From NCBI GenBank assembly GCA_003009755.1, contig PXUB01000037.1:850-64849 (forward strand): DNA of 64,000 bases. The letters are read 5' to 3'. The first letter of the stretch is position 1; each line of letters opens with the position of its first letter. Both the position numbers and the translations under genes were made by a program. The notes beneath the pieces were generated by a model. It had not been told where the DNA came from. It worked only from the letters and a program-made list of their open reading frames with translations, and searched no databases. Positions 28,662 to 46,072 of this stretch are shown here, in pieces. This DNA is from Thermoplasmatales archaeon SW_10_69_26. GTDB taxonomy: Archaea > Thermoplasmatota > SW-10-69-26.

Positions 28662-28793
28662 GAAGGCGTATTACGTTGTCATACTTTCATAAGCGTTTCG
28701 GCGCGTTCGGCGATGTTGGAAAGCGAGGTCGGCCACCGACCCAGCCCGGCGGAGGTAGGGTGTGACCTGGCCCCCGGCCCTCGCCCGAGCGGG

Positions 28794-28928
28794 TCAGCTC
28801 CGGGGAGATCGCTCGTCCTCCGCGGGGAGGAGGTCGGCGGTGGCCGGGACGGTGACGAGGGCGATCGCGGCGGCGAGCACGGCAAGGCGGCGGGGCGACT
28901 CGATGAGCAAGCCTGCGGCCTCCGTCAC
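28794..28928 (-). pseudogene. duplicated 5' fragment (44 codons) of the 476-aa repeat-protein gene
   Basis: Encodes MTEAAGLLIESPRRLAVLAAAIALVTVPATA then diverges and stops. It lies inside direct-repeat copy B. Confidence 0.55.
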
Positions 28929-29018
28929 CGGGAGCGGGCCCGTGCACGGTTAAGCGTTGCTTGACAAAGTTGCTTGACAAAAGCACAACTATTCCACGCC
29001 CGTGAGGGGCCGACCCCC
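28835..29018. repeat. direct repeat copy B, with an internal 13-bp tandem duplication (gttgcttgacaaa x2 at 28956-28981)
   Basis: See copy A. The tandem 13-mer is absent from copy A. Confidence 0.7.
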
Positions 29019-29088
29019 GGAATATCCGATACTGTTCACCAGAAACGCCTAAGGCCGCCCCCGCCCATCCCCCGACCGCAACCTCCCC

Positions 29089-30762: not shown

Positions 30763-30843
30763 GGGCCCGGGCGGGGCGGTCTCGGCCACGAGGCGGCGCG
30801 GCGGCGCCGCTTCTCCGCGCAACGCCTCTGAACCCAAGACGAG

Positions 30844-31150
30844 TTGGTCTGGCTCAAGGAACCCAAGTTCCACGACGAGCGGGACCGCCTGCTCCGCCAA
30901 CGCGTCCTCCACATCGACGCCCTCGAGGAACGCAAAGCCATCCTCGAGCCCCTCCTCGCGGGGTTGGCGTTAGAGGACGAGCCGGCGCACTGGTTGATGA
31001 GCATCCCCGGGTGCCGGTGGTACCTGGCGATGTACATCCTCAGCGAGGTCGGCACCATCAATCGGTTCGACAGCGTGGACGCGTTCAAGAAGTACAGCGC
31101 GTGCTGTCCCCGCAAGCAACCCACGGGCGGCCGGCAGGACCCGTACGGGG
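30844..31150 (+). pseudogene. IS110-family transposase C-terminal fragment
   Basis: LMSIPGCRWYLAMYILSEVGTINRFDSVDAFKKYSACCPRKQPTGGRQ matches the conserved IS110 C-terminal motif (L.SIPG.G...A......G...RF.S.....Y.G..P....SG). No DEDD N-terminal domain. Confidence 0.5.
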
Positions 31151-31170
31151 TGGTCCAGCATGGGCCGCTG

Positions 31171-31400
31171 TCAAGGCAAGCAGGCGGACGGATCCTGATT
31201 GAACAACCAGGCGAACGCCTGAGCCCACGCCTCGACCTCTTCTCTCAAGGCGTTCCTCGACGAGCGTCTGCGGAACGGGCCGATCCGTGCTTTGAGCAGG
31301 CCAACCCAGGTTTCCACCCTGTTCCGAACGCCGCCCGACGTGACTTGGCCGTTTCGCGGTCGAGGACGGGGCCGACCCGCCCCAGCGGGCCTTCTGCGAG
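31171..31400 (-). pseudogene. second IS630/Tc1-family transposase remnant (~60 C-terminal codons)
   Basis: ...VRNRVETWVGLLKARIGPFRRRSSRNALREEVEAWAQAFAWLFNQDPSACLP* is about 93% identical in DNA to 17973-18150. This copy keeps the TGA stop. Confidence 0.55.
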
Positions 31401-31745
31401 GAGGACGGCCACGCCGAGCACCAGGCCCCGACCCGAGCGGCGACCGCGTAGCCCTGATCGCTCCCGCGTCCCCCGCCTCCAGCGAGCGGCGTTTCACCGA
31501 CCGAGCCACACCGTTTCCCGATCGGCCCAATCGGCTCAAGTGTCCCCCAGCCGAGTCCCGGTCGAGGTGACCGAGGACATGAGGACACGACCGATCGAGG
31601 ACCACGCCGCTCTCGCCCGCCCTGGGTCAGTGGGGCGAGGCCCCGAGGAACCAGAGCAGGGCGGTCTTCGCGATGGAGACACCGTCTCGCATCCGGGTCC
31701 GCCGTCTGTTTTCGTCTTTCCCGACTTCCACGGTTGCGGTCATCC

Positions 31746-32657
31746 ATGATCACGTGCCAGGAGATCACGAAGAGCTACGGGGAACACGTCGTCCTCGCGT
31801 CCGTCAACCTCGATGTGCGGCGGGGCGAGACCTACGGTCTGCTCGGCCCCAACGGGGCGGGGAAGACCACGACGTTCAAGCTCGTCCTCGGCCTCGAGGA
31901 TCTCGACAGCGGTCGGGTCCTGGTGGGGAACAGGGACGTCGACAAGGACCGGGCGAGGTTCCTGGCCGACGTCGGCTACGTTCCCGAGGTCGTACCCGTC
32001 GAACCCCGCAAGACGGCCCGACAGAACCTGCGAGACGTCGGCCGATTGTACGATGTCGCCTCCCAGGAACTCGAGGACCGCATCCCGGAACTGCTGTCGT
32101 TCGTTGGCCTATCGGGGACAGGGGGCGATCGCGTCACCACGTTCTCGAAGGGGATGCGCCAGCGACTGGGGATCGCGCGGAGCCTGCTCCACCGTCCCGA
32201 CCTGTTGCTGTTGGACGAACCGTTCAGCGGGCTCGACCCCGAGGCCCAACGAGAGCTTAGACGTCTCGTCGAAACGCTGGCCTCGGAGGGACTGGCCTTG
32301 CTGATCGCGACCCATCGCCTGGCGGAGGCCTCCGAGATGTGTGACCGGGTCGGGATCCTCCACGAGGGACGCCTCCGTCAAGAGGTCCCGCTCGATGACC
32401 GGTCCCGGGAGAGCATCCACGCCAACTTCCTTGCCCCCGTCGGCGAGGAGGTCCTGGCGGCCGTGAACGATCTCGACGGCGTGGGCGCTGTCGAGCGGGG
32501 GAACGGGTGGGCTCGGATCCTCGCCGACGACGATTTGGGCGTCTCCCAGGTCCGAAGCATCCTCCAGGGGAAGGCCCGTCTCACCCGATACCGGAGCCCG
32601 AAACGGGAGCTCGAAGGTCTCTACGACCGCGTCACCAGCGAGGGGTCGAAGGCATGA
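31746..32657 (+). CDS. ABC transporter ATP-binding protein (ABC-2 type)
   Basis: ATG at 31746 (MITCQEITKSYGEHVV...). Walker A GPNGAGKTT. Signature LSGGQRK-like region FSKGMRQRLGIA. Walker B LLLLDEPFSGLD. Confidence 0.85.
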   Translation: MITCQEITKSYGEHVVLASVNLDVRRGETYGLLGPNGAGKTTTFKLVLGLEDLDSGRVLVGNRDVDKDRARFLADVGYVPEVVPVEPRKTARQNLRDVGRLYDVASQELEDRIPELLSFVGLSGTGGDRVTTFSKGMRQRLGIARSLLHRPDLLLLDEPFSGLDPEAQRELRRLVETLASEGLALLIATHRLAEASEMCDRVGILHEGRLRQEVPLDDRSRESIHANFLAPVGEEVLAAVNDLDGVGAVERGNGWARILADDDLGVSQVRSILQGKARLTRYRSPKRELEGLYDRVTSEGSKA

Positions 32658-33406
32658 TCGGCCCCCTCCGCCGGGAGATGACGACGATGTTGATGAGCTG
32701 GCGGCTCCCCGTGTTCCTCTTGGTCGCCGGCGGGTACCTCACCTACAAGCTGTCCACCCTCCTCGCCGATCCGACCGTCGCCGTCGCCTCGGCCTGGACG
32801 GTTCTGCCCGGCCTCGTCGAGGCCGGCCTCCTCCTCGTTCTCGGCCTGGCTTTCCTCTTCTCGCTCGACGCGCTCTCCCGCGAGCGGGATTCCGGCATGA
32901 TGGCGATCCTCCGCGTGACCCCGGTCACCTCCCACCGGATCGTCGCGGCGAAGCTCACCGTGCTCGCCGTCATCTACGTGGCTGTGGCGTTGCTGCTGGT
33001 GGCTGGGGCCGCCGTCGCCTCGTTCGCGGTCGGGGGACCACTGTTGTCCGCACTGCTCGGGTTCCTCGGCCCGCTCACGCTGGTCTTTTCGTTCCTCGCC
33101 GGGCTCGGGCTCTTCATCTCGGCGGCCACCGGCTCGGCTCGGACGTCGTTCGTCGTCGGTGCCCTGTCGTTCCTCCCGCTTTGGCTGACGATGGAACCGG
33201 ATGGCCCGGGACAGGTCCTCCTCTACCACCTCGGGGCCGGATCCGCGAGCGCCTGGATCCCTCTCGAGGCGGCCTACCTGGCCGGCCTCTCCCCGTTGAG
33301 CGCTTTCCAAACGCGGTGGCCAGCTCTCGTCGGCGCGGGCGTCCTCGGTCTCGTCCTCGCCGCGATCGCTGGGACCGTCATCGATCGCCGGGAGGTGAGC
33401 CTGTGA
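32654..33406 (+). CDS. ABC-2 family transporter permease
   Basis: ATG at 32654 overlaps the ATPase stop (ATGA). About 6 predicted TM helices. Confidence 0.65.
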   Translation: MIGPLRREMTTMLMSWRLPVFLLVAGGYLTYKLSTLLADPTVAVASAWTVLPGLVEAGLLLVLGLAFLFSLDALSRERDSGMMAILRVTPVTSHRIVAAKLTVLAVIYVAVALLLVAGAAVASFAVGGPLLSALLGFLGPLTLVFSFLAGLGLFISAATGSARTSFVVGALSFLPLWLTMEPDGPGQVLLYHLGAGSASAWIPLEAAYLAGLSPLSAFQTRWPALVGAGVLGLVLAAIAGTVIDRREVSL

Positions 33407-34989
33407 AACGGATCTTGCCCCTCCTGCTCCTCGCCGGCGCCGGCCTCCTGTTGATCCCACCGGCCCAGGGCGATTCGCCGAGCGTGATGGTCGACGTCGA
33501 AGGCGACTGGAGCTCGGACTCCAACGCGCTCGTCTTCCCCGTCGGGACCCCCCGCGCGATCGACACGACGGTCGCGAACACCGCCGAGGAGCCGGTCGAG
33601 GGCCAGCTCGTCGCCGAGGCGACCATCGGCGAAGAGGTCGCTCGCTGGGAGCAACCCGTCAGGGTCCCCGCCGGCTCGCAGATCCAGCGGCAGCTCGAGG
33701 TACGCTGGCCGGCCCTCCAGTCGGCGACGGTGACCGTCACCTTCGACGGGGAAGCCGAGTCCTCCGAGGCCTTCGCTCAGGGGTTCGGCGTGCCGGCGCT
33801 CGACGTCGAGTTCGATCGTCTGCACGAGAAGGGGCGCTACCTGCCCTACGACAAGCCCCTGACCCCCACCGCGAGCGTCGAGAACCTCGCCGGGGAGCCG
33901 TCGAACCGCACGGAGCTCGCGCTCACGATCGAGAGCTTGGAGGAAGCCGCGAGGACCGACCTCGCCCCGATCGAGGCGGGCGGAACCCGCGAGATCGAGC
34001 TACCCTCGCTGCATCCCTCCGACTCTGGCAGCCTGTCGGTGGGCGGCGCCGGGTCCACGGCGACGACGTCGTTATCGGGGAAGATGATCGCCACGCCGGA
34101 GGGTCCCTCCGCCTACGAGGGTCCGCTCTTCGATTTCGAGGTCCGTGAGGGCGTGGTCCGATCGGCGGGCACGGCCGGTTTCTTGGCCCACGTTCTCAAG
34201 GGCACCGCCCTGGAGCTGGCGGCGTCCTCCGTGACGCCCGGGGAGCCCTCGACCGCCACCGTCTGGGTCGCGAACTTCCGCGGCGAGGGAACCGCCGGCG
34301 CGCGTCTGGACGCCGAGATCTCCCCCCTGCTCATGTCGGGGCCGGACCCCAGCGAGTCGACGGTCGAAACGCGTTCGCTGTATCTCGACCCCTACGAGGA
34401 GAGGCTCGTCACCTTCACCTTCGAGCCGACCGTCGTGGGTCCCCACCGCCTGCAGGCGGACATCGACGGGTACGTCCTGGGGGCCTCGCTGGATGAGGTT
34501 CTGGCTCCCGATCTCGGTGCCCCCGTCCAGGATTGGCAGCTCGAGGATTCCACCCCATCGCTCGCGACCGGCGAGGAGACCGAGATCGAGCTCTCCTGGA
34601 CCCCCGCGGAGGGGTTCGAGGAGGGAACGGTCGGTCTGGCGATCACCCCTGTCCGGCAGGAGAACCAGCGGCTGGATCCCCGCTTCGGCGGCTCGGGGGA
34701 CCAAGCCGAGTTCGTGACCACCCGCACCCTCGACACGCAGATCGTGAACGCCTCGACCGGCGAACGGACGACCACCTTCCAGCTAACGGCGCATGCCACG
34801 GGCATCTTCGACGTCGCCCCCTACATGGAGACGGACGCGGGGATCTCGTCGTTCCCGGACCCCGCATCGGGCAAGCGACGCCTGGAGGTCGTGGACGAGA
34901 GCCCGGACCAGCTTGGTCCCTGGCTCCCGGCGATCGCCTCAGCCTTGCTGGCGGGCGTGGTCACCACGTGTCGCTTCCGCGCCGCCTGA
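33403..34989 (+). CDS. secreted/cell-surface hypothetical protein encoded with the ABC-2 transporter
   Basis: GTG at 33403 overlaps the permease stop (GTGA). Signal peptide KRILPLLLLAGAGLLLIPPAQG. 528 aa, acidic. C-terminal hydrophobic stretch LPAIASALLAGVVTT. Confidence 0.55.
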   Translation: MKRILPLLLLAGAGLLLIPPAQGDSPSVMVDVEGDWSSDSNALVFPVGTPRAIDTTVANTAEEPVEGQLVAEATIGEEVARWEQPVRVPAGSQIQRQLEVRWPALQSATVTVTFDGEAESSEAFAQGFGVPALDVEFDRLHEKGRYLPYDKPLTPTASVENLAGEPSNRTELALTIESLEEAARTDLAPIEAGGTREIELPSLHPSDSGSLSVGGAGSTATTSLSGKMIATPEGPSAYEGPLFDFEVREGVVRSAGTAGFLAHVLKGTALELAASSVTPGEPSTATVWVANFRGEGTAGARLDAEISPLLMSGPDPSESTVETRSLYLDPYEERLVTFTFEPTVVGPHRLQADIDGYVLGASLDEVLAPDLGAPVQDWQLEDSTPSLATGEETEIELSWTPAEGFEEGTVGLAITPVRQENQRLDPRFGGSGDQAEFVTTRTLDTQIVNASTGERTTTFQLTAHATGIFDVAPYMETDAGISSFPDPASGKRRLEVVDESPDQLGPWLPAIASALLAGVVTTCRFRAA

Positions 34990-35049: not shown

Positions 35050-35799
35050 CTACCCGCCTTCGCTGCCCGTGATCTCGCGGCGGCGGAACCACAGCGTTCC
35101 CAGCAACCCGGCGACGACGGCGATCGCGACGAGCACGACGACGGCGGTCGTCGTCGTGGCGGGGTCGACGATCTCGCCGGCGAAGAGGCCGCCGCTGACG
35201 AAGCCCTGTTGGTCGACGATCGAGCGCACCCAGTAGGCGACGGTGGCCTTGCGGAACACGAGCCCGCTGCCGGCCACGATCGACTCCCAGCCGACCAGGT
35301 AGCCGAGGCCGAGCAGGATCGGACGCTCGACGAAGGCGCCGAGCAGGGCGAACAGGCTCGTGTACGCCAGGGAGGCCATCCCGGTGACGAGCCAGGTGAG
35401 GCCGACGAGCTCGGCGTCGAGGTGCCCGATGGCGGGGAACACGAGCGTGAGCCCGATGCCGGCGAGCAGCCAGGTGGCCAGCGCGGCGCCGGTCATGCGC
35501 GTGGCGAGCAGCTGGCCGCGCGAGACGGGCCGGGTGGCCAGGTGCACGATGGTGCCCTGCATCAGCTCCTCGCGCAAGGTCGCGACGCCGATGAACAACG
35601 CCATCAGCGGCACGACGAGGCCGACACCGACGACGAAGAGCACGAACGTCGTCTCGGCTTCGGCCGCGGCCTCGCTCCAGCGTCGCAGGCCCAGGCCCAG
35701 CAGAGCCGGGGCCAGCGCGAGCAGGGCGAGCCCGATCCGTCGGCGGCCGGTGAAGGCCTCGCGCAGGGCGTGGCGGGTGAGGGCGAGGTTGGCGTTCAC
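35050..35799 (-). CDS. ABC-2 family transporter permease (second pair)
   Basis: GTG at 35799 (VNANLALTRHALREAF...) overlaps the upstream ATPase stop (GTGA). Multiple TM helices. The long Arg-rich upstream part of the 549-aa ORF is a frame artefact. Confidence 0.6.
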   Translation of the reverse strand: MNANLALTRHALREAFTGRRRIGLALLALAPALLGLGLRRWSEAAAEAETTFVLFVVGVGLVVPLMALFIGVATLREELMQGTIVHLATRPVSRGQLLATRMTGAALATWLLAGIGLTLVFPAIGHLDAELVGLTWLVTGMASLAYTSLFALLGAFVERPILLGLGYLVGWESIVAGSGLVFRKATVAYWVRSIVDQQGFVSGGLFAGEIVDPATTTTAVVVLVAIAVVAGLLGTLWFRRREITGSEGG

Positions 35800-36731
35800 T
35801 CCGAGGCCCCCTTGGTGAGGTAGTTGAAGACGGCTTGGAGGTTGTCGTCGGGGCTGAGCAGCTCCTGGATGTCGTAACCCTCCTCGAGGATCGTGTCGCG
35901 CAACCGGTCGTAGAAGACGTCGGGGGCGCGGGTCTCGGCCAGCACCTCGCCCGGGTCGTCGTCGGTGGGCTCGCTCACGCGGACGCGGACGACGTCGTCG
36001 TGGGCGATCAGCGAGGTCGCCAGCTCGCGGGGTTGGCCCAGGCGGATGGTGATCTTGTGCGGGTGCTCGTCCATGATGTCGCGGATGCGGTGGATGTCGC
36101 CCTGGGCGACGATGCGGCCGCCGACGAGGACGACGATCTCGCGCGTGAGGGTCTCGATCTCGTGCAGCACGTGGCTGGAGAACAGGATCGAGCGGCCCGC
36201 CTCGTCGATGTCCGTTAAAAGCTCCATCATCTCGCGGCGGCCGACCGGGTCGAGGCCGCCGAAGGGTTCGTCGAGCACGAGCAGCTCGGGCTCGTGCACG
36301 AGCGCCATCGCCAGCTTCAGGCGCTGGCGCATCCCGCGGGAGTAGCCGCCGGCCGGGCGGTCGGCGGCCTCGGCCAGGCCCACGCGGGCCAGCCAGTCGT
36401 CGGCGGCCGAACGCGTGCCGGTCTCGGTCAGGTCGGCGGCCAGGTGGGCGTGGTCGCGCCCGGTGCGCTCCTCCCACAGGGACAGCGTCTCGGGCACGAA
36501 CCCGATGCGTTCGCGCAGCTGGGCGTTGCCCCAGGGATCCTCGCCGAGCACGCGCAGTCGGCCCGTGCTGGGCTCCAGTTGCCCGGTGAGGAGGCCCAGA
36601 AGCGTCGTCTTGCCGGCGCCGTTGGGGCCCACGAGCCCGGTCAGGCCAGCCTCGAGATCCAGGGAGACGTCGTTGAGCGCGACGACGTCGCCGTACCACT
36701 TGGAGACGTCCTCGAGCTCGAGCACGCTCAT
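35796..36731 (-). CDS. ABC transporter ATP-binding protein
   Basis: 311 aa from ATG at 36731 (MSVLELEDVSKWYG...). Walker A GPNGAGKTT. Signature YSRGMRQRLKLA. Walker B LLVLDEPFGGLD. Confidence 0.85.
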   Translation of the reverse strand: MSVLELEDVSKWYGDVVALNDVSLDLEAGLTGLVGPNGAGKTTLLGLLTGQLEPSTGRLRVLGEDPWGNAQLRERIGFVPETLSLWEERTGRDHAHLAADLTETGTRSAADDWLARVGLAEAADRPAGGYSRGMRQRLKLAMALVHEPELLVLDEPFGGLDPVGRREMMELLTDIDEAGRSILFSSHVLHEIETLTREIVVLVGGRIVAQGDIHRIRDIMDEHPHKITIRLGQPRELATSLIAHDDVVRVRVSEPTDDDPGEVLAETRAPDVFYDRLRDTILEEGYDIQELLSPDDNLQAVFNYLTKGASE

Positions 36732-37573
36732 CCGGCCACCTCCTCGCGGTGGAGGCCCCAGGTCAGCCCGGCGAGGCTCACCAGGACCCAGCCGGCGACG
36801 GTCAGCCAGGCGCCCAGTTCCGGGATGGGGCTGGTCTCGATGCCGAGCAGCGTGTGCGTGGTGCGTTCGAGGGCGTCGAAGAGGTCGATCAACAACAGGT
36901 CGGCGTTGTCGGCGACGCCGCGGGCCACGCGGGCGGCGGCCGCGAGCAGGAACACGAGGCCGACCCAGACGGCCGCGGTCCGACCGCGGGCGCCGACGAC
37001 GGCCGAGACCGCCGCGACGACGAGCGTCGTGACGAGGCCGACGAGGACGCTGGCGGCCAGGATGCCCAGCGGCAACAGCCACACGTTGTCGGGGTACAGG
37101 GCCTCGGGCGTGAACGCGACGGCCAGCAGCCAGAGGACGAGCACCGGGACCGCGGTGACGGCCAGCGTCGCCGCGAAGGGACCGGCGCCTTTGCCGGCCG
37201 CGTACCCGGGCTTGGTGAGCGGGTTGGTGAAGTAGAAGGTGAGGCCGCCGGTCTCCAGGTCCTCGGCGATGACGTCGGCCGCGACGGCGGCGAGCACGAA
37301 CGTGACGCCGAACCGGGCCTGGCTGAGGAGGGCGTCGGCCAGGAACGAGGCCGAGAACGGCGTGGCGCCGGGTTGGGCACCCTGGGCGCCGATCTGCAGC
37401 ACCGCGCCGCGCACGGCGATGTGGAGGAACGAGACGCCGAGGATGACCCAGAACCAGAGGGACGAGCCGACCTGGGCGAGCCCGCGCTGGGCGATCGCGC
37501 CGATGCGGGCCAACCGGGAGGTCCGCGAGCCCTCGTAGGCCTCGTAGGCGGGCTCGTAGACGGCGTCGGTCAC
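36728..37573 (-). CDS. ABC-2 family transporter permease (first pair)
   Basis: GTG at 37573 overlaps the upstream ATPase stop (GTGA). Hydrophobic helices throughout. Confidence 0.6.
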   Translation of the reverse strand: MTDAVYEPAYEAYEGSRTSRLARIGAIAQRGLAQVGSSLWFWVILGVSFLHIAVRGAVLQIGAQGAQPGATPFSASFLADALLSQARFGVTFVLAAVAADVIAEDLETGGLTFYFTNPLTKPGYAAGKGAGPFAATLAVTAVPVLVLWLLAVAFTPEALYPDNVWLLPLGILAASVLVGLVTTLVVAAVSAVVGARGRTAAVWVGLVFLLAAAARVARGVADNADLLLIDLFDALERTTHTLLGIETSPIPELGAWLTVAGWVLVSLAGLTWGLHREEVAG

Positions 37574-38484
37574 GCCGATCCCTCCTGCAGGGAGCGGACG
37601 AGCGCCTCCTCGAGATCCTGGCGGGCGGGCGTGAGCTCGCGCACCTGGACGCCGGCCTCGCGGGCCGCCGCCAGCACGAGCCGGGGCCCGGCGTCCTCGG
37701 GCAGGTGGACCAGGCGAACGCCCTCGGGCGAGGTCTCCAGCTCGGCTTCTCGGCCGGCCAGCTGCTCCGCGAAGGCATCGACGTCGCCTCGCACCCGGAC
37801 GCGTAGCGTGGATCGGCGCAGGGCGGTGAGGTCCTCCAGGCGAGCGTTGGTGACGGCTTGCCCGTTGGAGAGCACGAGCGCGCCCTCGCACACGGCCTCG
37901 ACCTCCGGCAGGATGTGGCTGGCCATGACGACGGAGACGTCGTGCGTGCTGGCGAGGTTGCCGACGAGCTCGAGCATCTCCTCGCGGCCCTCGGGGTCGA
38001 GCCCGTTCGTCGGCTCGTCGAGGAACAGCAGGTCGGGATCGTGGACGAGGGCCTGCGCGATCTTGACGCGTTGGCCCATGCCTTGGCTGTAGTCGACCGT
38101 CGGCCGGTAGCGGGCCTCGCCGAGGCCGACGAAGTCGAGCACGCTGTGGGCGCGCTGGGCGGCGACGTCGGCCGGTAGTCCGCCCAGGCGGCCGGCGTAG
38201 GTGACGTACTCGGTGCCGGTGGCGCCGCGCACGAACGCGTCACGCTCGGGGGCGAGGCCGGTCTGCTCGCGCACGCCGACGGGATCCCGGGCGGGATCGA
38301 CGCCGGCCACGCGGGCCGACCCGCTGGTGGGGTCGGTCAACCCCAACAACAGGCGAAGCAGCGTCGTCTTGCCGGCGCCGTTGGGGCCCAAAAGGCCCCA
38401 CGTGCCGGGCGGGATGTCGACGGTGAGATCCTCCAAGGCCTGCACGGGCCCGAACCGCTTGGTTAGGCCGTCGGTGGTGATGAC
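37570..38484 (-). CDS. ABC transporter ATP-binding protein
   Basis: GTG near 38484 or 38493 (...VITTDGLTKRFG...). Walker A GPNGAGKTT. Signature YSQGMGQRVKIA. Walker B LLFLDEPTNGLD. Confidence 0.85.
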   Translation of the reverse strand, partial: VITTDGLTKRFGPVQALEDLTVDIPPGTWGLLGPNGAGKTTLLRLLLGLTDPTSGSARVAGVDPARDPVGVREQTGLAPERDAFVRGATGTEYVTYAGRLGGLPADVAAQRAHSVLDFVGLGEARYRPTVDYSQGMGQRVKIAQALVHDPDLLFLDEPTNGLDPEGREEMLELVGNLASTHDVSVVMASHILPEVEAVCEGALVLSNGQAVTNARLEDLTALRRSTLRVRVRGDVDAFAEQLAGREAELETSPEGVRLVHLPEDAGPRLVLAAAREAGVQVRELTPARQDLEEALVRSLQEGSA

Positions 38485-38548
38485 GGGCGCGACCACGCAG
38501 GGCGAATGCGGGGGATGGGAAGAAGGGTTGGGGTTCGGTCTCGTGACG

Positions 38549-39226
38549 TCACTCGCGGGCGAGCAACCACAGCGCCACACCCGCCACGAGGCCGGCCAGC
38601 GCGGGCGCCCAGACGAGGTCCAGGTTCCCGGCGAAGCGCTCGGTCAGCGGGGCCAGCAGGGCGAAGGCGAGCACGAGCGTGGCGCCGGCGAGCCCAGAGA
38701 CGACGAGCCACCGGATCGCGGCCGCTCGGGTCGCGCGATCGGCGAGCGGGCCACCCAATCCACGGCGTTCCAGCTCGGCGAGCACGCGTTCGCGGGCGCA
38801 GATCCCCATCTCGACGGTCGCCAGCGCGACGAGGCCGGCCGAGACGAGCCACACCTGGGCTGGGGGATCCAGCGTGGCGCCGGCCTGGCCGCCACCGAGA
38901 CGGGCCCAGGGGACGCGTCCGTAGGGGAGGGTGAGCACGGCGACGGTGGCGACGGTCCACAGCCCGAACCCGGTCCCGGTGCGGCCGCTGACGAGGAAGG
39001 TGCCCAACCCGACGAGCGTGGCGAAGCCACCGGTGAACGCGATCGCGAACCCGAGCGTGGCCTCGTCGGGGCCCAACAGTGGTGGGGCGAGCTCGCTGGC
39101 GCCGAGCAGGGCTTGCTCGACCCAGGCCACGTCGCCGGCGACCAGCTGCATCAGGAGGGCGAGGCCGAGCCCGTAGGCGAGCCCGATGGCGCCGCGGCGA
39201 GCTGGGCGGGCCAGCGTCTCAGCCAC
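38549..39226 (-). CDS. integral membrane protein of unknown function (operon member)
   Basis: 225 aa, ~6 TM helices. Start overlaps the DUF58 stop by 8 nt. Confidence 0.5.
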   Translation of the reverse strand: MAETLARPARRGAIGLAYGLGLALLMQLVAGDVAWVEQALLGASELAPPLLGPDEATLGFAIAFTGGFATLVGLGTFLVSGRTGTGFGLWTVATVAVLTLPYGRVPWARLGGGQAGATLDPPAQVWLVSAGLVALATVEMGICARERVLAELERRGLGGPLADRATRAAAIRWLVVSGLAGATLVLAFALLAPLTERFAGNLDLVWAPALAGLVAGVALWLLARE

Positions 39227-40505
39227 GGGGCACCACGTCCTGGAACAGCAGGCGTTCGAGCGGATCCTCGCGCGGGTTCCAGCCGATCACGTGGGCCCCC
39301 AACCGGCGCAGTCGGTCGTGGCGGGGCTGGATCTCGTGGTCGAGGAGGCGAGCGGCTTGGTGGGTCGCCTCGTCGCCGTCGACCAGGTGGTGGGCCAACG
39401 GTTCGATCACGACGACGGGCTGGGGGTCCTCGCCGGCCATCGCGTTGATGCGGCGGATCGCTTCCTCGAGCTCGTCACTAGCAACGTCCGTGCGCGTCAG
39501 GAACACGACCATGGGCTTGTGCTGGACGAGCCAGGCTTGGGAGTCGACGACGGCTTGCAAGGGGCCCTCGTCGGTGTCGCCGGGGGCCAACCGGGACAGG
39601 CGGCGTTGCAGCTTGTGGAATTGCTTGTCGCCGACGTCGGGGTACACGGGATCGCCGGCGTCGGTGTTGTAGGCGTGCAGGCCGACGCGGTAGCCCCGGT
39701 CGAGGTAAGCCATCGCCAGCCCGCTGGCGGCGCCCACGGCGGCCTCGAACCCGTTCTCGACGCTCGTGCCGACGGCCATGTGCCGGCCGGCGTCCAGCAG
39801 GAACCACACGGCCTGGCGGCCCTCGACCTCGTACTCGTTGACGAGCGGGCGGTCGGCGGCCGGGCCCAGGCGGGCGGTGGCCTTCCAGTTCACGGCTTTG
39901 GGCGGGTCGCCGAACCGGTACTCGCGGATCTCGCGGAAGTCGGTCGTCTTCAGGCCGATCCGGGCGGCGTCCTCGTCGGCGCCGACCTCGGCGGCCGTGC
40001 CGCGCATGCGCTGCAGCCGGCGCAGCGGGATCAAGGCCGGGTGCACGTCGATCGTGGCCGCCTCGCCGACGGGCTGGGCCGGCTTTGAGCGCAGGCCCAC
40101 CTGCGGGACGGGTGCCACCTGGGCCGGGCCCAGCTCGTGGCGGCCGCGCTTGGCGGTGCGCACCTTGACCGAGACGGTGTGGGCGTCCTCGCTGGCCGCG
40201 AGCAGGGCGAGGTTGGGGTCCTCGGGCACCGAGAAGGGGTCGGGCAACGGGAGGCTGAGGGCCACCAGGCCGCGGCCGTCGGTCTCGAGGTGCACGCTCA
40301 CGTCGACGAGGTCGCCGGCGCGAGCCTCGGAGGGGGCCTCGATCTCGACGTCGCGGACGTGGGGCGGGGTCTCGGCGAGCCCGACGAGCGCCGTCACGAG
40401 CGGGAGCGCGCTGAGGCCGACGAGCACGAGGTTCGCCGTGCCCAGGCCGGCGACGAGCAGGGTCGTGCCGACGAGCAACAGCCCGTGGGCGGCGCGCGTG
40501 AACAC
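39219..40505 (-). CDS. DUF58-domain protein (MoxR-associated, VWA-like)
   Basis: 428 aa. N-terminal TM anchor. Central region ...REYRFGDPPKAVNWKATARL... matches the DUF58 core. Canonical neighbour of MoxR. Confidence 0.75.
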   Translation of the reverse strand: MFTRAAHGLLLVGTTLLVAGLGTANLVLVGLSALPLVTALVGLAETPPHVRDVEIEAPSEARAGDLVDVSVHLETDGRGLVALSLPLPDPFSVPEDPNLALLAASEDAHTVSVKVRTAKRGRHELGPAQVAPVPQVGLRSKPAQPVGEAATIDVHPALIPLRRLQRMRGTAAEVGADEDAARIGLKTTDFREIREYRFGDPPKAVNWKATARLGPAADRPLVNEYEVEGRQAVWFLLDAGRHMAVGTSVENGFEAAVGAASGLAMAYLDRGYRVGLHAYNTDAGDPVYPDVGDKQFHKLQRRLSRLAPGDTDEGPLQAVVDSQAWLVQHKPMVVFLTRTDVASDELEEAIRRINAMAGEDPQPVVVIEPLAHHLVDGDEATHQAARLLDHEIQPRHDRLRRLGAHVIGWNPREDPLERLLFQDVVPRG

Positions 40506-40508
40506 GGG

Positions 40509-41480
40509 TCAGGCCTCGCCTCGCGAGTACGCGGTGGGCGGCTCGACGTCGCCGATCGCGGCCTCGACGACGTCGGCGTCCTCGGTGCCCTCGATCACGT
40601 GTTCCATGTCGAGCACGATGCGGTGCGCCAGCGCGTCGACGGCCAGGTCCTTGACGTCGTCGGGCGTCACGTAATCGCGGCCGCGGGTCATCGCGAGCGC
40701 TCGACTCAACCGCAACAGGGCGAGGTCCCCGCGCGGGCTGGGGCCGACGTCGACCGCCTCGTGGGCGCGGGCGGTGCGCACGATGCGGGCGATATACTCG
40801 ATGATCGCTTCGTGGACGAAGATCTTGTCCTCGACGACGCGTTGCAGGCGTTGGAAGGTCTGCATCGAGATGACGGGCTCGACGTCGCCGCTGGGGTCGT
40901 TCTTGCTCCAGTCGATGCGGCGGCGCATGATCTCGGACTCGTCGTCGAGCGAGTCGGGGTAGCCCATCTGCAGGCGCACCAGAAAGCGGTCCATCTGGGC
41001 CTCCGGCAGGGGGTAGGTGCCCTCCTGTTCGATGGGGTTTTGCGTGGCGAGCACGAAGAAGGGCGAGGGGATCTCCATCGTGTCGCCCTCGATCGTGACC
41101 TGGCGCTCCTCCATCGACTCCAGCAGCGCGGATTGGGTCTTGGGCGGGGCGCGGTTGATCTCGTCGGCGAGGACGACGTTGGCGAAGATCGGGCCTTTCT
41201 CGAGCTGGAACTCGCCCGTCTTGGGGTTGTAGATGTTCGTGCCGACGATGTCGGCGGGTAGCAGGTCGGGCGTGAACTGGATGCGGTCGAACTCGCAGCC
41301 GACGGCTTGGGCGAACACCTTGACGAGCAGCGTCTTGCCGAGCCCGGGGTAGTCCTCGAACAGGACGTGCCCGTTCGCGAGCGCGGCGGCCAGCAGCTTC
41401 TCGACGGTGTCGGGGTGGCCGACGAACACGTCGTTCACGGTCTCGCGGATCTGGGTGCACTTGCGGGCGACGCGTTTCAC
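40509..41480 (-). CDS. MoxR-family AAA+ ATPase
   Basis: 323 aa from GTG at 41480. Walker A GHVLFEDYPGLGKT. Walker B VVLADEINRA. MoxR signature FFVLATQNPIEQEGTYPLPEAQMDRF. Confidence 0.9.
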   Translation of the reverse strand: MKRVARKCTQIRETVNDVFVGHPDTVEKLLAAALANGHVLFEDYPGLGKTLLVKVFAQAVGCEFDRIQFTPDLLPADIVGTNIYNPKTGEFQLEKGPIFANVVLADEINRAPPKTQSALLESMEERQVTIEGDTMEIPSPFFVLATQNPIEQEGTYPLPEAQMDRFLVRLQMGYPDSLDDESEIMRRRIDWSKNDPSGDVEPVISMQTFQRLQRVVEDKIFVHEAIIEYIARIVRTARAHEAVDVGPSPRGDLALLRLSRALAMTRGRDYVTPDDVKDLAVDALAHRIVLDMEHVIEGTEDADVVEAAIGDVEPPTAYSRGEA

Positions 41481-42571
41481 AGGGGGGCCTCCTGGGGGTC
41501 CTCGAGGTGGGCGAGCACGCGGTCGACGGCTTCCCGGCGGGCTTGGCGGTCGCCCTCGGCGCGGCGGCGGCCGACGACGAGCGTCAGCGCGGTGCCGGTG
41601 CCTTCGATGGCGAGGAAGGCCAGCACGGTGGCGATCGCGACGGTTGCGACCTCCAGCGTGACGTCGAGGGCGCCGGGGAGGCTGAGGAATCCGGCGAGCA
41701 GAGGGTCGAGCGTGAACACGACGGCGCCTGCACCGAGCGCGAGCAGAAAAGCCCGGCGGAGCTTGGCGAGCGTGCCCGACAGCTGGTGCTCGACGACGCC
41801 CCACGGCGGGTCGGTGGCCTCGTTGCGGATCGTGGTGTGGAGGGTGGCGACGAGGCCGGCGAGGGCGAGGACGGCCAGCAGGCCGCCGGTGAGGGGTGAG
41901 GCGGTGAAGAACCGCAAGGCGCCGAGCCCGAACAGGCCGACGCCGACGAGGCCGAGCGCGAGCCCGGTCTTGGGGGCGCTGGCCTGGTGGGCCCGCCATT
42001 GCAACATCGTGAGACTGGTCCCGGTGACGAGCAGGATCGGCGGGACGATCGCGATGCCGAGACCCTGGGCCAGCGAGGCGACGGCGAGGCCGAGGCCGAG
42101 CGTGACGACGATCCCGGCGAGCAACCGGACGCCGAGCAGGGCGCGGGTGGGGGCGCGGGCACCGGCGGCGGCTCGCAGCTGCTCGGCCAGGCGCTGGCTG
42201 GCGGCGTCCCCGAGGCCGCGGGCCTGGGCGGCCTGGTGGACGTGATCCAACAACAGGGGGGCCAGGCGGCCCTCCTCGACGTAGGCTTGCATCGCGGATC
42301 GCAGATCCTCGTAGTCCTCGTCGACCTGCGGTCGAGCGCGTTGCTGGTGGGGGGCCAGCGCGCCCCGGATGGGGCGTCCGGTGCCCGCGATGGACCGGCC
42401 CAGGTCCACGAGCAGCGCGAACAGAAGGATGCCGAGCCCGAACCGAGCGGCGGCGAGGGGAGCGGGATCGAGCACGGTGCGGGCGCCCAGGTAGACGACG
42501 ACGGCGACGAGCGCGATCGCGGCGCGGGGCACGATCGCCAGCGGTGCGTCGGCCGTGGAGGCCTCAGCCAC
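41477..42571 (-). CDS. polytopic membrane protein of unknown function (operon member)
   Basis: About 364 aa from GTG at 42571 (VAEASTADAPLAIVPRAAIALVAVVVYLG...), about 8 TM helices. Stop overlaps the MoxR GTG (GTGA). The upstream Arg/Pro-rich part of the 475-aa ORF is a frame artefact. Confidence 0.5.
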   Translation of the reverse strand: MAEASTADAPLAIVPRAAIALVAVVVYLGARTVLDPAPLAAARFGLGILLFALLVDLGRSIAGTGRPIRGALAPHQQRARPQVDEDYEDLRSAMQAYVEEGRLAPLLLDHVHQAAQARGLGDAASQRLAEQLRAAAGARAPTRALLGVRLLAGIVVTLGLGLAVASLAQGLGIAIVPPILLVTGTSLTMLQWRAHQASAPKTGLALGLVGVGLFGLGALRFFTASPLTGGLLAVLALAGLVATLHTTIRNEATDPPWGVVEHQLSGTLAKLRRAFLLALGAGAVVFTLDPLLAGFLSLPGALDVTLEVATVAIATVLAFLAIEGTGTALTLVVGRRRAEGDRQARREAVDRVLAHLEDPQEAPL

Positions 42572-45500
42572 GGGGGTCGGCCTCCCGGACCAGCTGCATG
42601 AAGCCCTCGTAGTCGTCGCGGTCGACCGGTTGGGGCGAGTAATCGTAGCGTTCGAACCGGCGCGCCAGCTCGTCGGCCGGTGGACCCAGAGCCCGGGCGA
42701 GCTCGCGCGGGGTGGCATCCGGGCCCACGAGGCCGTGCCGGGTCGCGGTGCGGCGAAGCTGGCGGTAGGCGCGGTCGATCTCCTCGCGGTAGTCGCCGAC
42801 GCGCACGTCGAGCACGGTCTCGCGGGCGGGATCGTCGGCGAGGCGAGCGCGGTAGGTGTAGGTACCGCCAGGGCGGGCCGGCACGGTGGCGCGCGCCGTC
42901 CCATCGCTGCCCAGCTCGAGCCGGCGGGTGCCCTCGGGGCCGTCGAGCTCGAGGGTCCCCGTGATGGTCTCGTCGTGCCGGGCTCGGGCGAGGATCTCGG
43001 TCGGCTCCCCGGGGTGCCAGACCGGCGGGTCGCCGGGGGTCTGGTGGGCCAACCGCAGCGAGATCGGGGAGGCCTCGTCGGGGTCGTCGGTGGGGGTTCT
43101 CGCTTGACGGCGACGGACGGCGACGAGCGCGGCGAGCCCGAGCGCGGCGGCGGCCGCCGACAGCCAGCCCCACGGCAGCGGAGCCGCGGTGACCTCGGCG
43201 CTGGCGGTGGTCAGGCTCTGGGCGGTCGTGGGGGTCGAACGGGCAAGCACCTCGATGTCGACGATGCCCTCGGCGTCGTCGGGTCGCGAGAGGGAGAGGT
43301 TGGCCGTGCCGTCCTCGCCGGTGATCGCGCGGTCGCTGGCCTCGAAGGCGCCCTCGGCCTGGGCGATGACTGGCACGCCGGCCAGCGGTCCCTGGCGGCC
43401 TTCGGCGGTCACCGCCAGCTGAACCGGGCGGCCGTCTCGTCCCTCGTCGGCGACGTCGACGGCCAACGTCGGCGTCTCGAGGATCCGGAGCGGGGCTCGG
43501 GTGGTGAACCGGGCGTCGGGGAGGGTGAGGTTGGCGGGTTGGAGGCCGGGCTGGGCGTCGTCGGGGGCACGCAGGTTCACCTGGGCGCGGCCGTCGGCGT
43601 CGGTGCGGTCCTGGGAGACGAAGCTGGGCCCGGCCAGGCGGACGGGCTGGTCGGTGAGCGGCGTGTCGTCGACGGTCAAGCGCAGGGAGCCGTTGGCCGA
43701 ACCCCCGGGGGCGATGTGGAGGTCGGCCTCGACCTCGAGCGGGGCCGCCGACAGGGTGAGGTTGCGGCCGGTGGGGCGGAAGCTGTTCGGCGGATGGACC
43801 TCCAGGCGGACGGGGTGGTCGCCGGTGTTCGGCATCGGGGCTCGCAGGCGAGCCTGGCCGGCCTGGTCGGTGAGGGTCTCGTCGGTGAGCCCGGTCTCGG
43901 TGTGGGCGTGGACCTCGATCGCGGGCATCGTCGTGCCGTTGTCGGCTTCGAGCCGGACGTCGATCGGGGCTTGGGCGCCGACCGGTTGGGGGCCCGGCGA
44001 TCCCGTCCGCAGCTGGAGGCCGGCGGTGGCGGTGAGGACGAGGCGACGGTTGGCGTCCACGGCGGGGGCCTCGAGCTCGACGGTGTGGTTGCCGGGCGCG
44101 AGGTCGGCGGGGACGGGCAACCCGAGCGTGAACGCGCCGCGGGGGTCGGTGTCGGTCGTGGCCGTGACGTCGCCGTAGCTGGCTTCCAGGCGGACGCGAC
44201 CGGGTTCGCCGTCCTCGGTGAGGACGCGGCCCTCGATCTCGGTGGGCTCGCCGCGGGGGGCCCGGTGCTCGGCGGGGGCTTGGATGCGGGCTTCGACGGC
44301 CTGGATCGTGCCCTCGGTGGCGTCGGCGGTGACGTTCTCGGTCCCCGGGAAGGTCGCCGTGATCGTGTAGTTCCCGGGGAAGGGTAGCCCGCCGGGCAGC
44401 ACGGCGTGGGCGCGGCCGTCGGCGCCGGTGCGGGCCGTGAGGCGGTCGTCGGTGTCCTCGACCGCGAACACGATCGTCCGGTTGGGGATCGGCGCCTCGT
44501 AGGCGTCCACGAGCCGGGCTTCGAGCGGTAGGGGCACGTCGACGCCGGCGCGGTCGGGCAGGTCCAGGCGGACATCGGCCTCGCCTTCGACGGCGACCAC
44601 GGGGTCGCTCCAGGCGCCGGCCAGGGGTGGATCGTGCATCCCTCGGGGGTGGGCGTGAGCCAGGACGTGGTAGGGGCGGGTCGGGGCGTCTGCAGGGAGC
44701 TTGGCGCTGGCGGTGAACGTGCCGGCGGCGTTCGTGCTCGCGGACCCGGTCTGGATCTCGATGCCGGGCGCGTTCTTCGTGGCGTTGGCGTACACCGTGA
44801 CCGGATGGTCCCGCAGCGGCTCGCCGGCGGGGCCGAGCACGCGTCCAACCACCTCGAAGGCCTCGCCCTTGCGGATCCGGTCGGGGGCATCGGTCACCGT
44901 GATCGTCGGCCGCTCTCGCCGGATATCCTCGGGCGGGGCCTCGGAGCCGCTGCGGGCGCGGTCCAGCAGGTCCGCGAGGCCTTCGGTGTCGGCCGGCCCG
45001 CCGGCCGAGCGGTGGACGACGGTGCCGGCGGGCAGCTCGACGGTCTCGGTGGCGAACACCGAGGACCAGGCGCTGGGGGGTCCCGAGGGGTGGGCGCGGG
45101 CGCCGGGCTCGAGGTCCAGCCGCGTGCCGGCCGGGAACCTCACGGGCGGCAGCTGGAGCTCGGCGTCGGCGGGCAGGGGGACCTTGGCGCCGGGTTCGAG
45201 CACGGTGGCCGCCCCGATCTCCTCCCCGCCCGGGGAGGTCACGGAAGCGTTGGGCGGGAGCGCGAGCTCTTGGTCGCCGGTCTGCAGCTGGCAGGGCGTG
45301 GTGCAGGTGAGCGCGTCGCCCTTATGCTCCCAACCGTCGGCCAGGACGAGCGTGCCGGTGAGGCTCGCAGGGGCGGGACGGATCGTCTCGCCGGGATCGA
45401 TCGTCACCCGTCCCGGTCCCGTGAGGCGAACCCCATCGTCGGTGCGTTCGCGGTCGGGAAGCTGGGCCCGCGTGGGGTCGAGCAGCGTCAGCTCGGGGAT

Positions 45501-45668
45501 CGGCAGCCCCGATCGCGGCTCTTGGACCTCCCGGGCGGGTGCATCGCGGGCCTGTTGGGACCGTTCGGTGACCTCCTGCCGGACCTCGGCGATGAGGGCG
45601 GTGGAGAGCCCCAGCAGGCCGACGAGCAGGAGGAGGCCGGCCGCGAGCTGGAGGGACCGCTGTGCCAC
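42564..45668 (-). CDS. giant membrane-anchored protein with repeated Ig-like/carboxypeptidase-regulatory-like domains and a C-terminal DUF4129 domain
   Basis: 1034 aa. N-terminal anchor MAQRSLQLAAGLLLLVGLLGL. Internal TM segment WGWLSAAAAALGLAALVAV. C-terminal ...TPRELARALGPPADELARRFERYDYSPQPVDRDDYEGFMQLVREA matches the DUF4129 consensus. Confidence 0.65.
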   Translation of the reverse strand: MAQRSLQLAAGLLLLVGLLGLSTALIAEVRQEVTERSQQARDAPAREVQEPRSGLPIPELTLLDPTRAQLPDRERTDDGVRLTGPGRVTIDPGETIRPAPASLTGTLVLADGWEHKGDALTCTTPCQLQTGDQELALPPNASVTSPGGEEIGAATVLEPGAKVPLPADAELQLPPVRFPAGTRLDLEPGARAHPSGPPSAWSSVFATETVELPAGTVVHRSAGGPADTEGLADLLDRARSGSEAPPEDIRRERPTITVTDAPDRIRKGEAFEVVGRVLGPAGEPLRDHPVTVYANATKNAPGIEIQTGSASTNAAGTFTASAKLPADAPTRPYHVLAHAHPRGMHDPPLAGAWSDPVVAVEGEADVRLDLPDRAGVDVPLPLEARLVDAYEAPIPNRTIVFAVEDTDDRLTARTGADGRAHAVLPGGLPFPGNYTITATFPGTENVTADATEGTIQAVEARIQAPAEHRAPRGEPTEIEGRVLTEDGEPGRVRLEASYGDVTATTDTDPRGAFTLGLPVPADLAPGNHTVELEAPAVDANRRLVLTATAGLQLRTGSPGPQPVGAQAPIDVRLEADNGTTMPAIEVHAHTETGLTDETLTDQAGQARLRAPMPNTGDHPVRLEVHPPNSFRPTGRNLTLSAAPLEVEADLHIAPGGSANGSLRLTVDDTPLTDQPVRLAGPSFVSQDRTDADGRAQVNLRAPDDAQPGLQPANLTLPDARFTTRAPLRILETPTLAVDVADEGRDGRPVQLAVTAEGRQGPLAGVPVIAQAEGAFEASDRAITGEDGTANLSLSRPDDAEGIVDIEVLARSTPTTAQSLTTASAEVTAAPLPWGWLSAAAAALGLAALVAVRRRQARTPTDDPDEASPISLRLAHQTPGDPPVWHPGEPTEILARARHDETITGTLELDGPEGTRRLELGSDGTARATVPARPGGTYTYRARLADDPARETVLDVRVGDYREEIDRAYRQLRRTATRHGLVGPDATPRELARALGPPADELARRFERYDYSPQPVDRDDYEGFMQLVREADPRG

Positions 45669-45688: not shown

Positions 45689-46072
45689 ATGCTTAAAGGT
45701 TCACCTGCGCGCGCCGCAGGGGAGCCGTCCGGGCGGAAGGCTTTTCAACAGGCTCGGCGCCATGAGGTAGCTGTGTTCCGTTTCCGCCTGTATCGGTTCG
45801 AGAACGATCTGCTCCTCGCGGCCAGCGACGAGGAGCTGATCGGTCGCAGCTTGTCCCAGGGGGAGGTCGAGATCCACATCTCCGAGCAGTTCTACGGCAC
45901 CAAGGAGGCCGACCAGGGCGAGCTGCGGGATCTGCTCGACCGGTGCACGGTGGCGAACCTGATGGGGGAGCGCTGCGTGAAGCTGGCGGCCGAGCTCGGG
46001 TTCGTCGACCGGGGCAACGTGGTCGAGGTGGAGGACGTCCCGCACGCGCAGGTCGCCCAGATGCGGCGGTAG
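45689..46072 (+). CDS. small conserved archaeal protein (DUF424-like)
   Basis: 127 aa from ATG at 45689 (MLKGSPARAA...). ...FRFRLYRFENDLLLAASDEELIGRSL..EVEIHISEQFYG... resembles DUF424. Start is uncertain (alternative GTG at 45662). Confidence 0.4.
   Translation: MLKGSPARAAGEPSGRKAFQQARRHEVAVFRFRLYRFENDLLLAASDEELIGRSLSQGEVEIHISEQFYGTKEADQGELRDLLDRCTVANLMGERCVKLAAELGFVDRGNVVEVEDVPHAQVAQMRR

Follow-up and report, generated by a model that had tools for sequence, protein, structure and literature searches.

An array of nine consecutive minus-strand genes, G1-G9, occupies positions 35050-45668 of a 64,000-nucleotide (nt) stretch of DNA (the window) from Thermoplasmatales archaeon SW_10_69_26 (PXUB01000037.1). 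Its first five genes encode a membrane module built around a MoxR ATPase and a DUF58 protein (cassette A), and its last four a double ABC-2 exporter (cassette B). We conclude, with a probability of roughly 70%, that the array consists of two independent, individually widespread cassettes standing end to end, a lineage-specific juxtaposition and not one machine. The two cassettes are adjacent only in one family-level clade of uncultured Thermoplasmatota, in four genomes.

Two cassettes meet at one site in one clade

Two related contigs differ exactly where the cassettes meet. In locus L086 (63% G8 identity), the nine genes are followed by genes for a biotin carboxylase, a biotin-lipoyl protein and a PAS kinase. 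In L081 (57% DUF58 identity), G1-G5 are followed directly by the biotin carboxylase gene that comes after G9 in L086, so that the two loci are separated by a clean four-gene indel. The four ABC genes also occur on their own. In L087 they stand alone at 61/45/65/54% identity, downstream of a 198-nt intergenic region and a divergent gene, and the acidobacterial loci L088 and L089 carry the cassette alone as well, with orthologues in the same ATPase-permease-ATPase-permease (A-P-A-P) order at 45/28/50/29% identity. From these stand-alone copies it follows that G6-G9 form a self-contained unit. Among 57 loci outside the clade with at least 3 kb of sequence downstream of DUF58, none has an ABC-2 system adjoining the module. 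One of them (L041) has an ABC ATPase within 3 kb downstream; we ruled it out as a second independent association, the ATPase being of the NMT1/BPD importer type and lying behind a metallo-beta-lactamase gene.

A preliminary description of this DNA had seen the module as hard-wired to an ABC-2 efflux machine, which the L081 indel, the stand-alone cassettes of L087 and the Acidobacteriota and the 57 distant loci do not support. The adjacency itself is not confined to the source genome. The nine-gene order is found in the window and in three related contigs of metagenome-assembled genomes (MAGs), L001, L084 (59% DUF58 identity) and L086. It is not seen in L081, in L087 or in L082/L083, where no ABC N-terminus was present in any forward frame of the 176 nt between G5 and the contig end; the contig of L085 is cut immediately after G5.

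A tree of MoxR and DUF58 has the topology ((window, L082), ((L086, (L081, L085)), (L084, L001))) and places L081 within the ABC-bearing group with 88% bootstrap support. The simplest reading is hence that the ancestor of the clade already had the adjacency and that it was later lost, or the cassette relocated, in at least one lineage. When the window proteins were mapped onto the relatives, the whole neighbourhood proved syntenic in the clade, in the order FolD, CPxCG, TatA, creatininase, NMD3 and DUF424, then the module and the optional cassette, then biotin carboxylase, lipoyl protein, DnaK and DnaJ. Because synteny extends over the entire neighbourhood, an adjacency kept in four genomes carries little functional weight. 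The spot past the cluster is prone to rearrangement; it holds a PKD gene in L084 and a 16.6-kb insertion in the window.

Every comparison locus comes from a MAG or a metagenome contig, and the adjacency might in principle be an artefact of assembly or binning. We regard this as extremely improbable, given that the same nine-gene order recurs in four independent assemblies from different samples at 40-79% protein identity, and that the G+C content at third codon positions (GC3) is uniform over the nine genes (0.91-0.97).

The last 56 nt of L082/L083 and positions 43-98 of L087 share a 94%-identical coding segment (TL.GPRDVTHIES.SLA) in opposite orientation. It lies at the contig end after the G5-like gene in L082/L083 and at the start of the stand-alone-cassette contig in L087. 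The match is no contig overlap, being confined to a short stretch of common coding sequence that runs in opposite directions. One JGI sample yielded both L083 and L087. The two module contigs (L082 and L083) end at an identical position, and this points to a repeated surface-protein gene at that site.

Gene array and signals at the junction

The G+C content across the window is 66-75%, and raw lists of open reading frames (ORFs) are thus crowded with spurious frames. Genes were called with a caller based on GC3 and on the G+C content at second codon positions (GC2), together with direct translation (Table 1). The junctions measure -8 nt (G1/G2), -4 (G2/G3, GTGA), +3 (G3/G4), -8 (G4/G5), +52 (G5/G6), -4 (G6/G7, GTGA), -4 (G7/G8, ATGA) and -4 (G8/G9, GTGA). 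Seven of the eight are overlaps or gaps of at most 3 nt, an operon-like packing, and eight same-strand transitions in a row have a chance expectation of about 0.4%. Upstream, the array borders on a divergent DUF424/NMD3 pair, downstream on a convergent gene. Gene calling, translation and junctions confirm what had been described of nine co-directional, closely packed genes with a single long gap before the first ABC ATPase, and Pfam confirms the claimed gene order and domain content (DUF4129, MoxR, DUF58 and two ABC ATPase/ABC-2 permease pairs). The assignment to Halobacteria proved wrong. The closest relatives, both of the DUF58 homologues and of the related loci, are Thermoplasmatales/Thermoplasmatota MAGs, and judged by them the host is a 70%-GC Thermoplasmatota archaeon and no haloarchaeon; the lone 'Halobacteriales' MAG locus (L026) has a module without an ABC neighbour.

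Table 1. Genes and junction features of the array in the window
Feature	Position	Strand	Length	Description
TATA-like box TTTAAG	45692-45697	minus		-29..-24 from the G1 GTG; no Shine-Dalgarno-like sequence at G1
G1	42564-45668	minus	1034 aa	Bitopic surface protein with immunoglobulin (Ig)-like repeats and DUF4129 (Pfam, hydropathy)
G2	41477-42571	minus	364 aa	Polytopic, 8 hydrophobic segments (hydropathy scan)
G3	40509-41480	minus	323 aa	MoxR-proper AAA+ ATPase
G4	39219-40505	minus	428 aa	DUF58 (Pfam)
G5	38549-39226	minus	225 aa	Polytopic, 5-6 hydrophobic segments; last gene of the conserved module
G5/G6 spacer	38497-38548	minus	52 nt	No GGAGG, no strong TTTA box
G6	37570-38496	minus	308 aa	First ABC ATPase; ABC_tran 1.5e-25
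G7	36728-37573	minus	281 aa	First ABC-2 permease, 6 hydrophobic segments; ABC2_membrane_2 30.0 bits (cut-off 27.2)
G8	35796-36731	minus	311 aa	Second ABC ATPase, motifs intact; ABC_tran 2.8e-29
G9	35050-35799	minus	249 aa	Second ABC-2 permease, 5-6 hydrophobic segments; ABC2_membrane_2 32.1 bits

The TATA-like box upstream of G1 is probably the promoter of a leaderless transcript that starts at this gene. A TTTA-type box about 27-33 nt upstream of the start is also found at about nine other window genes that have intergenic regions, and over the window as a whole such boxes precede many start codons by about 24-33 nt. Examples lie upstream of 48899, upstream of 50596 and in the intergenic region 57643/59132, and show no Shine-Dalgarno sequence. 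Within the array, clear GGAGG-type sequences precede G2, G3, G7 and G8, and weaker purine-rich ones G4 and G9. This distribution indicates that first genes in the window are mostly leaderless and that internal operon genes bear GGAGG. NMD3, DUF424 and TTTA-type boxes about 30 nt before starts fit an archaeon that uses mostly leaderless transcripts.

No Shine-Dalgarno-like GGAGG was found before G6. The preceding spacer contains the motif CGAACC-N2-AACCCTTCTT at 38520-38537, within -42..-22, of which the AACCCTTC part begins at -33 from the G6 GTG. The stand-alone cassette of L087 shows CGAACC-N1-AACCCTTCATTT, with AACCCTTC also from -33, and since this cassette follows a divergent gene, it must own a promoter. 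In L001, L084 and L086, a T-rich box lies about -26 to -32 before the cassette. The lack of GGAGG at G6, together with a motif common to the stand-alone cassette, suggests that the spacer holds a promoter of the cassette's own, probably a weak leaderless one with elements resembling a transcription factor B recognition element (BRE) and a TATA box. The preliminary description had taken the nine genes for one coupled operon and named independent promoters between 38549 and 38493 as the sign of a merely incidental adjacency; what lies in this interval is a promoter-like motif that the cassette shares with L087.

The alternative of one operon for one machine, in which the ABC-2 pumps would energise or export an envelope component assembled or gated by the MoxR/DUF58 chaperone module, appears unlikely to us, although several points speak for it and against two independent cassettes. 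All nine genes lie on the same strand and are tightly packed at all junctions except G5/G6; in L081, however, exactly four genes are absent between identical flanks. The window spacer has no oligo-T terminator and no strong TTTA box, and its TATA-like element is poor (TTCTTCC). A run of five or more T is indeed lacking there, but only one such run per strand exists in the whole window, and with oligo-T runs almost absent the missing terminator says nothing; read-through from cassette A may occur as well. G6 itself has no Shine-Dalgarno-like sequence and shares its promoter-like motif with the stand-alone cassette. The nine-gene order, inferred as ancestral, was kept in four genomes at 54-60% DUF58 identity to the window, always with module and cassette on the same strand and with a spacer of 52-104 nt, yet the region-wide synteny leaves this conservation uninformative, and none of the 57 distant loci repeats it. 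The close relatives amount to six informative contigs, all of them from MAGs, which is a small sample. In related archaeal neighbourhoods of MoxR and von Willebrand factor A (vWA) genes, a homologue of GldG has been described (Makarova, Galperin & Koonin 2015, PMC5898192); GldG is an accessory subunit in the ABC-2 transporter of gliding motility. This is independent, if indirect, support for a connection between MoxR modules and ABC-2 systems. The free-standing cassettes of L087 and the Acidobacteriota speak against one machine. The two cassettes may still be co-transcribed and coupled in function to some degree.

An identical 13-mer, CCCCGTGGCTGAG, at 39218-39230 and 42563-42575 (minus strand) makes both 8-nt overlaps, G4/G5 and G1/G2; through it, both upstream proteins end in PRG and both downstream membrane proteins begin with VAE. 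Two matches compare with 0.02 expected. The version at the G4/G5 junction (CCCGTGGCTGA) is also present in L086, and the G1/G2 version is not common to the relatives.

The five-gene MoxR/DUF58 module

A total of 185,579 species genomes were scanned with a DUF58 alignment, and 80 loci were kept with 10-kb flanks. The nine window proteins were run against them by tblastn, and neighbouring ORFs were extracted and clustered. Almost throughout, the loci show a large protein, a gap, MoxR and DUF58 in fixed order. The lineages include Thermoplasmatota, Bathyarchaeia, Archaeoglobi, Methanomassiliicoccales, Methanocellaceae, Syntrophoarchaeum and one Halobacteriales MAG, together with Dehalococcoidia and a few other bacteria. 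According to ORF clustering, MoxR is preceded by a gene for a polytopic protein of about 350-400 aa or for a longer fusion. In 61 loci, DUF58 is followed, mostly via a 4-nt overlap, by a second polytopic gene of about 230 aa, and clustering of the 80 loci revealed no recurrent gene beyond it. Among these loci, all nine genes were met in L001 only, the closest relative.

Profile comparisons link the two polytopic genes of the window to these distant counterparts. Residues 20-143 of G2 align with the C-terminal part of the polytopic proteins before MoxR (hhalign 95%, E 2.8e-8; non-colinear), and the G5 family of the close relatives aligns with the distant G5-like family in a colinear manner (hhalign 80%, E 1.5e-5). 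The order of genes in the 80 loci and these links define the conserved unit as G1-G5, and on such comparisons G1-G5 is a self-standing conserved module. In some Thermoplasmatota and Bathyarchaeia MAGs, module copies stand in tandem or nearby: L037, L049 and L071 each hold two MoxR-DUF58 pairs about 10 kb or less apart.

G1 begins with a hydrophobic anchor (residues 8-26), continues with about 800 aa of Ig-like and macroglobulin-like repeats and, after a second transmembrane segment (TM, 833-851) and a basic stretch, ends in a tail with DUF4129. Pfam matches Big_1, CarboxypepD_reg and MG4 in the repeats and DUF4129 (PF13559) at residues 967-1028 (29.7 bits, cut-off 24.8). Strongly basic sequence (RRRQAR) follows the second TM, and from this we predict a cytoplasmic DUF4129 tail. 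G3 is a MoxR ATPase with AAA_3 (222.7 bits, 1.5e-66) and AAA_lid_2 (79 bits, 2.2e-22) and with intact Walker A (GLGKT), Walker B (LADEINRA), sensor 1 (ATQNP) and sensor 2 (GPSPRG) motifs; its best solved relative is 2r44 (E 1e-74).

For G4, an AlphaFold2 model from a 24-sequence alignment reached a mean predicted local distance difference test score of 84. In the model, residues 4-44 at the N-terminus form a helical hairpin and residues 49-155 an Ig-like sandwich; beyond a disordered linker lies an alpha/beta domain (193-421), for which Foldseek gave matches to NorD of the NorQD complex (9qhd_G, E 8.5e-5) and to the vWA domain of Rpn10 (2x5n, 8jtk_B). The canonical metal ion-dependent adhesion site (MIDAS) motif of vWA domains is DxSxS. 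G4 is without the MIDAS serines and reads D238-A-G-R-H-M after the beta1 strand, with FLDAxxxM as the family consensus. If the hairpin crosses the membrane twice, the vWA domain would be cytoplasmic and able to meet MoxR.

The preliminary description had also pointed to two unassigned membrane proteins. Their polytopic character stands, with eight hydrophobic segments in G2 and five to six in G5. Neither Pfam nor NCBIfam assigned a family to G2, to G5 or to their 47 and 39 positional homologues, respectively, and profile searches of both families against PDB sequences gave chance-level matches only and no solved relative. G2 has a soluble helical insert with a PHxQRA...VDExY motif. The idea that G5 might be SpoIIM-like, prompted by Makarova 2015, was unsupported.

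The module is set apart from most of its relatives by the lack of a transglutaminase (TGase) core. Pfam found Transglut_core ahead of the Ig-like repeats in the G1 equivalents of 8 of 10 distant loci. A custom hidden Markov model (HMM) built from these segments detected the core in 42 distant loci; some giant proteins of Dehalococcoidia contain it two or three times. In G1 and its clade homologues, Pfam gave no Transglut_core at E<=10 (first 260 residues), and the custom HMM had no match in the window or in the close relatives. By sequence, the module is hence a transglutaminase-less variant of the very common MoxR-vWA-transglutaminase-like operon. The G1 equivalents of five Dehalococcoidia loci (L016, L020, L040, L077 and L078; about 1-6800) exceed 2000 aa and have two or three cores each; the pre-MoxR membrane proteins encoded after them measure 700-1000 aa and have 8-16 TM.

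The same clade thus combines a missing core, which no member has, with an adjacent ABC-2 cassette, which four members have. The two events could be linked, with the exporter replacing or complementing the lost extracellular enzyme; it might, for instance, bring the Ig-repeat protein a substrate that is lipid-linked or a peptide. We consider such a link highly unlikely. Large proteins without TGase and without an ABC-2 neighbour also exist outside the clade (the Halobacteriales MAG locus L026 and the Methanomassiliicoccales loci L041/L043), and within it, the large protein of L081 has no core while the site next to the module has no cassette.

The double ABC-2 cassette

Cassette B comprises two ABC ATPase/ABC-2 permease pairs. 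G6 has intact Walker A, signature (YSQGMGQR), Walker B (LLFLDEP) and H-loop motifs. Its best NCBIfam matches are the DrrA and GldA subfamilies, under cut-off, and G6/G8 missed the NCBIfam cut-offs of DrrA, GldA, PmtA, NodI and NosF throughout (best scores 198/182.6 against 312 for DrrA, 160.5/147.9 against 402.6 for GldA and 114.6 against 350 for PmtA). The solved ATPases nearest to G8 are NosF (E 2.7e-43) and the second nucleotide-binding domains of ABCA7/ABCA4/ABCA1. PF12679, the family of the ABC-2 permeases, also holds NosY and GldF.

Homologues of G8 fall into a small same-clade set at 59-77% identity and hundreds of sequences at about 50%, of which all named ones are from Acidobacteriota. 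In a tree, the archaeal cassettes are monophyletic with respect to the acidobacterial ones, which fits a single acquisition of the cassette. The corresponding search with G7 returned 10 close matches on short contigs and no context information. In L087, the G8 orthologue is split by a frameshift (5338-5454 / 5429-6250), either an assembly error or a pseudogene. In L088 and L089, an HD-domain gene precedes the cassette, and an unannotated gene of 341-391 aa (9878-10903 and 9812-10987, respectively) and then a GGACT-domain gene follow it; this arrangement may be a conserved bacterial setting of the cassette.

Working model and known systems

Gene content, folds, distributions and the indel are observed; the topology, client, promoter and transport substrate of the following model are predicted. 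Cassette A would be a membrane-embedded MoxR system in which a cytoplasmic MoxR ring (G3) is coupled, via the vWA-like domain of the membrane-anchored G4, to the membrane proteins G1, G2 and G5. By analogy to MoxR/vWA pairs such as NorQ/NorD, its activity would most likely be the ATP-driven assembly or conformational remodelling of an envelope complex from inside. Most relatives have one to three extracellular transglutaminase-like (papain-fold) cores, so that the ancestral system probably processes or cross-links envelope proteins. As the catalytic core is absent in the clade, the role of G1 is probably limited to structure or binding. Cassette B is a pair of ABC-2 (type V) exporters of the NosFY/ABCA/Pmt-like kind, which moves hydrophobic or amphipathic molecules out of the membrane. 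The cassette appears to have been acquired once by the ancestor of the clade, with Acidobacteriota-type cassettes as its nearest outside relatives, to have landed in the rearrangement-prone spot after G5, and to have been lost or moved later in at least one lineage.

We found no published description of a MoxR/DUF58/DUF4129 module adjoining a double ABC-2 cassette; each half has known counterparts. Zhang & Aravind 2012 (PMC3495828) described a three-gene operon of MoxR, vWA and transglutaminase-like (YebA/TgpA-type) genes as a predicted membrane-proximal protein-processing system, with Pseudomonas aeruginosa TgpA as a studied TGase/DUF4129 member (PMC3507681). Cassette A shares with it MoxR-proper directly followed by DUF58/vWA and a membrane protein ending in DUF4129, and in 42 related loci the large protein has the Transglut_core. 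In contrast to the 8-TM YebA type, G1 is bitopic, has about 800 aa of Ig-like repeats and no transglutaminase core; moreover, polytopic G2 and G5 are fixed additions, and the vWA domain of G4 lacks the MIDAS serines.

The predicted archaeal secretion or membrane-remodelling complex around arCOG01314 (DUF4350/GldG-like; PMC5898192) resembles cassette A in its composition (Table 2 therein), with a MoxR/GvpN ATPase, an Ig-like and vWA protein, Ig-like membrane proteins and small 5-TM proteins. The DUF4350/GldG-like flavodoxin-fold protein, however, was not detected by Pfam among the nine proteins (PF14258 or related), nor in the N-terminus of G1 at E<=10. The bifidobacterial PFNA cluster (pkb2-fn3-MoxR-duf58-tgm, PMC8430577) likewise has a large secreted protein with Ig-fold (FN3) repeats beside MoxR and DUF58, as well as a membrane protein of the transglutaminase type. 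It differs in being bacterial, in its Ser/Thr kinase and separate TGase gene, and in having no described G2/G5 equivalents and no ABC-2 genes. The vWA-like domain of G4 matches NorD of the NorQ/NorD complex (PDB 9qhd/9qhe), and the partner ATPase is of the same MoxR family; yet NorQD is soluble and matures nitric-oxide reductase, whereas G4 is membrane-anchored with an added Ig-like domain.

For cassette B, the best-known A-P-A-P precedent is staphylococcal pmtABCD (PMC7527219, PMC9974410). Likeness to it and to NosFY-type transporters lies in the gene order, the ABC-2 permeases (PF12679) and the matches of G8 to NosF and the PmtA model. In contrast, equivalog cut-offs are missed widely, no genes for peptides or NosD-like partners lie nearby, and the true orthologues of G6-G9 are uncharacterised acidobacterial cassettes.

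The insertion downstream of the array

In L001, L081 and L086, the biotin carboxylase gene comes directly after the cluster. In the window, a lineage-specific insertion of 16.6 kb (18444-34989) separates G9 from this ancestral neighbour (16417-18405). The island contains a 712-aa gene, a 1521-aa subtilase (21657-26222), a pair of small RHH/CopG-type genes (27856-28661), a MoxR scrap, a helix-turn-helix (HTH) regulator, an IS110-type transposase remnant and a third ABC-2 system; few confident genes lie in 28.7-31.7 kb. The third ABC-2 system (31746-34989, plus strand), which converges on the cluster, has three genes joined by 4-nt overlaps. They encode an ATPase (31746-32657), an ABC-2 permease (32654-33406) and a protein of 528 aa (33403-34989) that matches CARDB weakly.

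The preliminary description had read a decayed MoxR copy in this region as evidence that the module was duplicated or moved. A fragment does exist at 30145-30252 (plus strand), 36 aa with 58% identity to G3 residues 127-161 in the Walker B-sensor 1 stretch (tblastn, E 5e-9), but it covers only positions 88-120 of the AAA_3 profile, the most conserved motif of this family, and by tblastn neither DUF58 nor DUF4129 remnants were found near it. It is overlapped by an intact ArsR/MarR-like HTH gene (30197-30694, plus strand), which is followed by the remnant of an IS110-family transposase (Transposase_20; 30844-31749, plus strand). A second MoxR-like piece at 30203-30352 (E 1.8) is spurious and lies within the real HTH regulator gene. 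The fragment is a scrap of some MoxR-family gene in an insertion scarred by mobile elements, and no duplication of the module is apparent from it.

Significance

MoxR-DUF58-(transglutaminase/DUF4129) operons are among the most widespread prokaryotic clusters that lack a known client. Had an exporter been firmly tied to the module, this would have offered a way to approach its function; our data argue against such a link. The wider distribution of neither cassette requires functional coupling, and we hold coupling in the clade itself to be possible but unlikely. It is conceivable, but decidedly doubtful, that the captured bacterial-type double ABC-2 exporter has become a working part of the TGase-less MoxR/DUF58 envelope module. 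Its pumps, controlled by the AAA+ ring, would then supply the Ig-repeat protein with a substrate embedded in the membrane or extract one for it. If true, this would be the first concrete client pathway for the MoxR-DUF58-DUF4129 family. What is gained with two independent cassettes is a sharper conserved unit, a five-gene membrane module with two unannotated polytopic families that ranges from Thermoplasmatota, Bathyarchaeia and Archaeoglobi to Dehalococcoidia. Its transglutaminase-less variant, together with the natural pair of loci with and without the ABC genes (L086 and L081), provides useful comparators for assigning its function.

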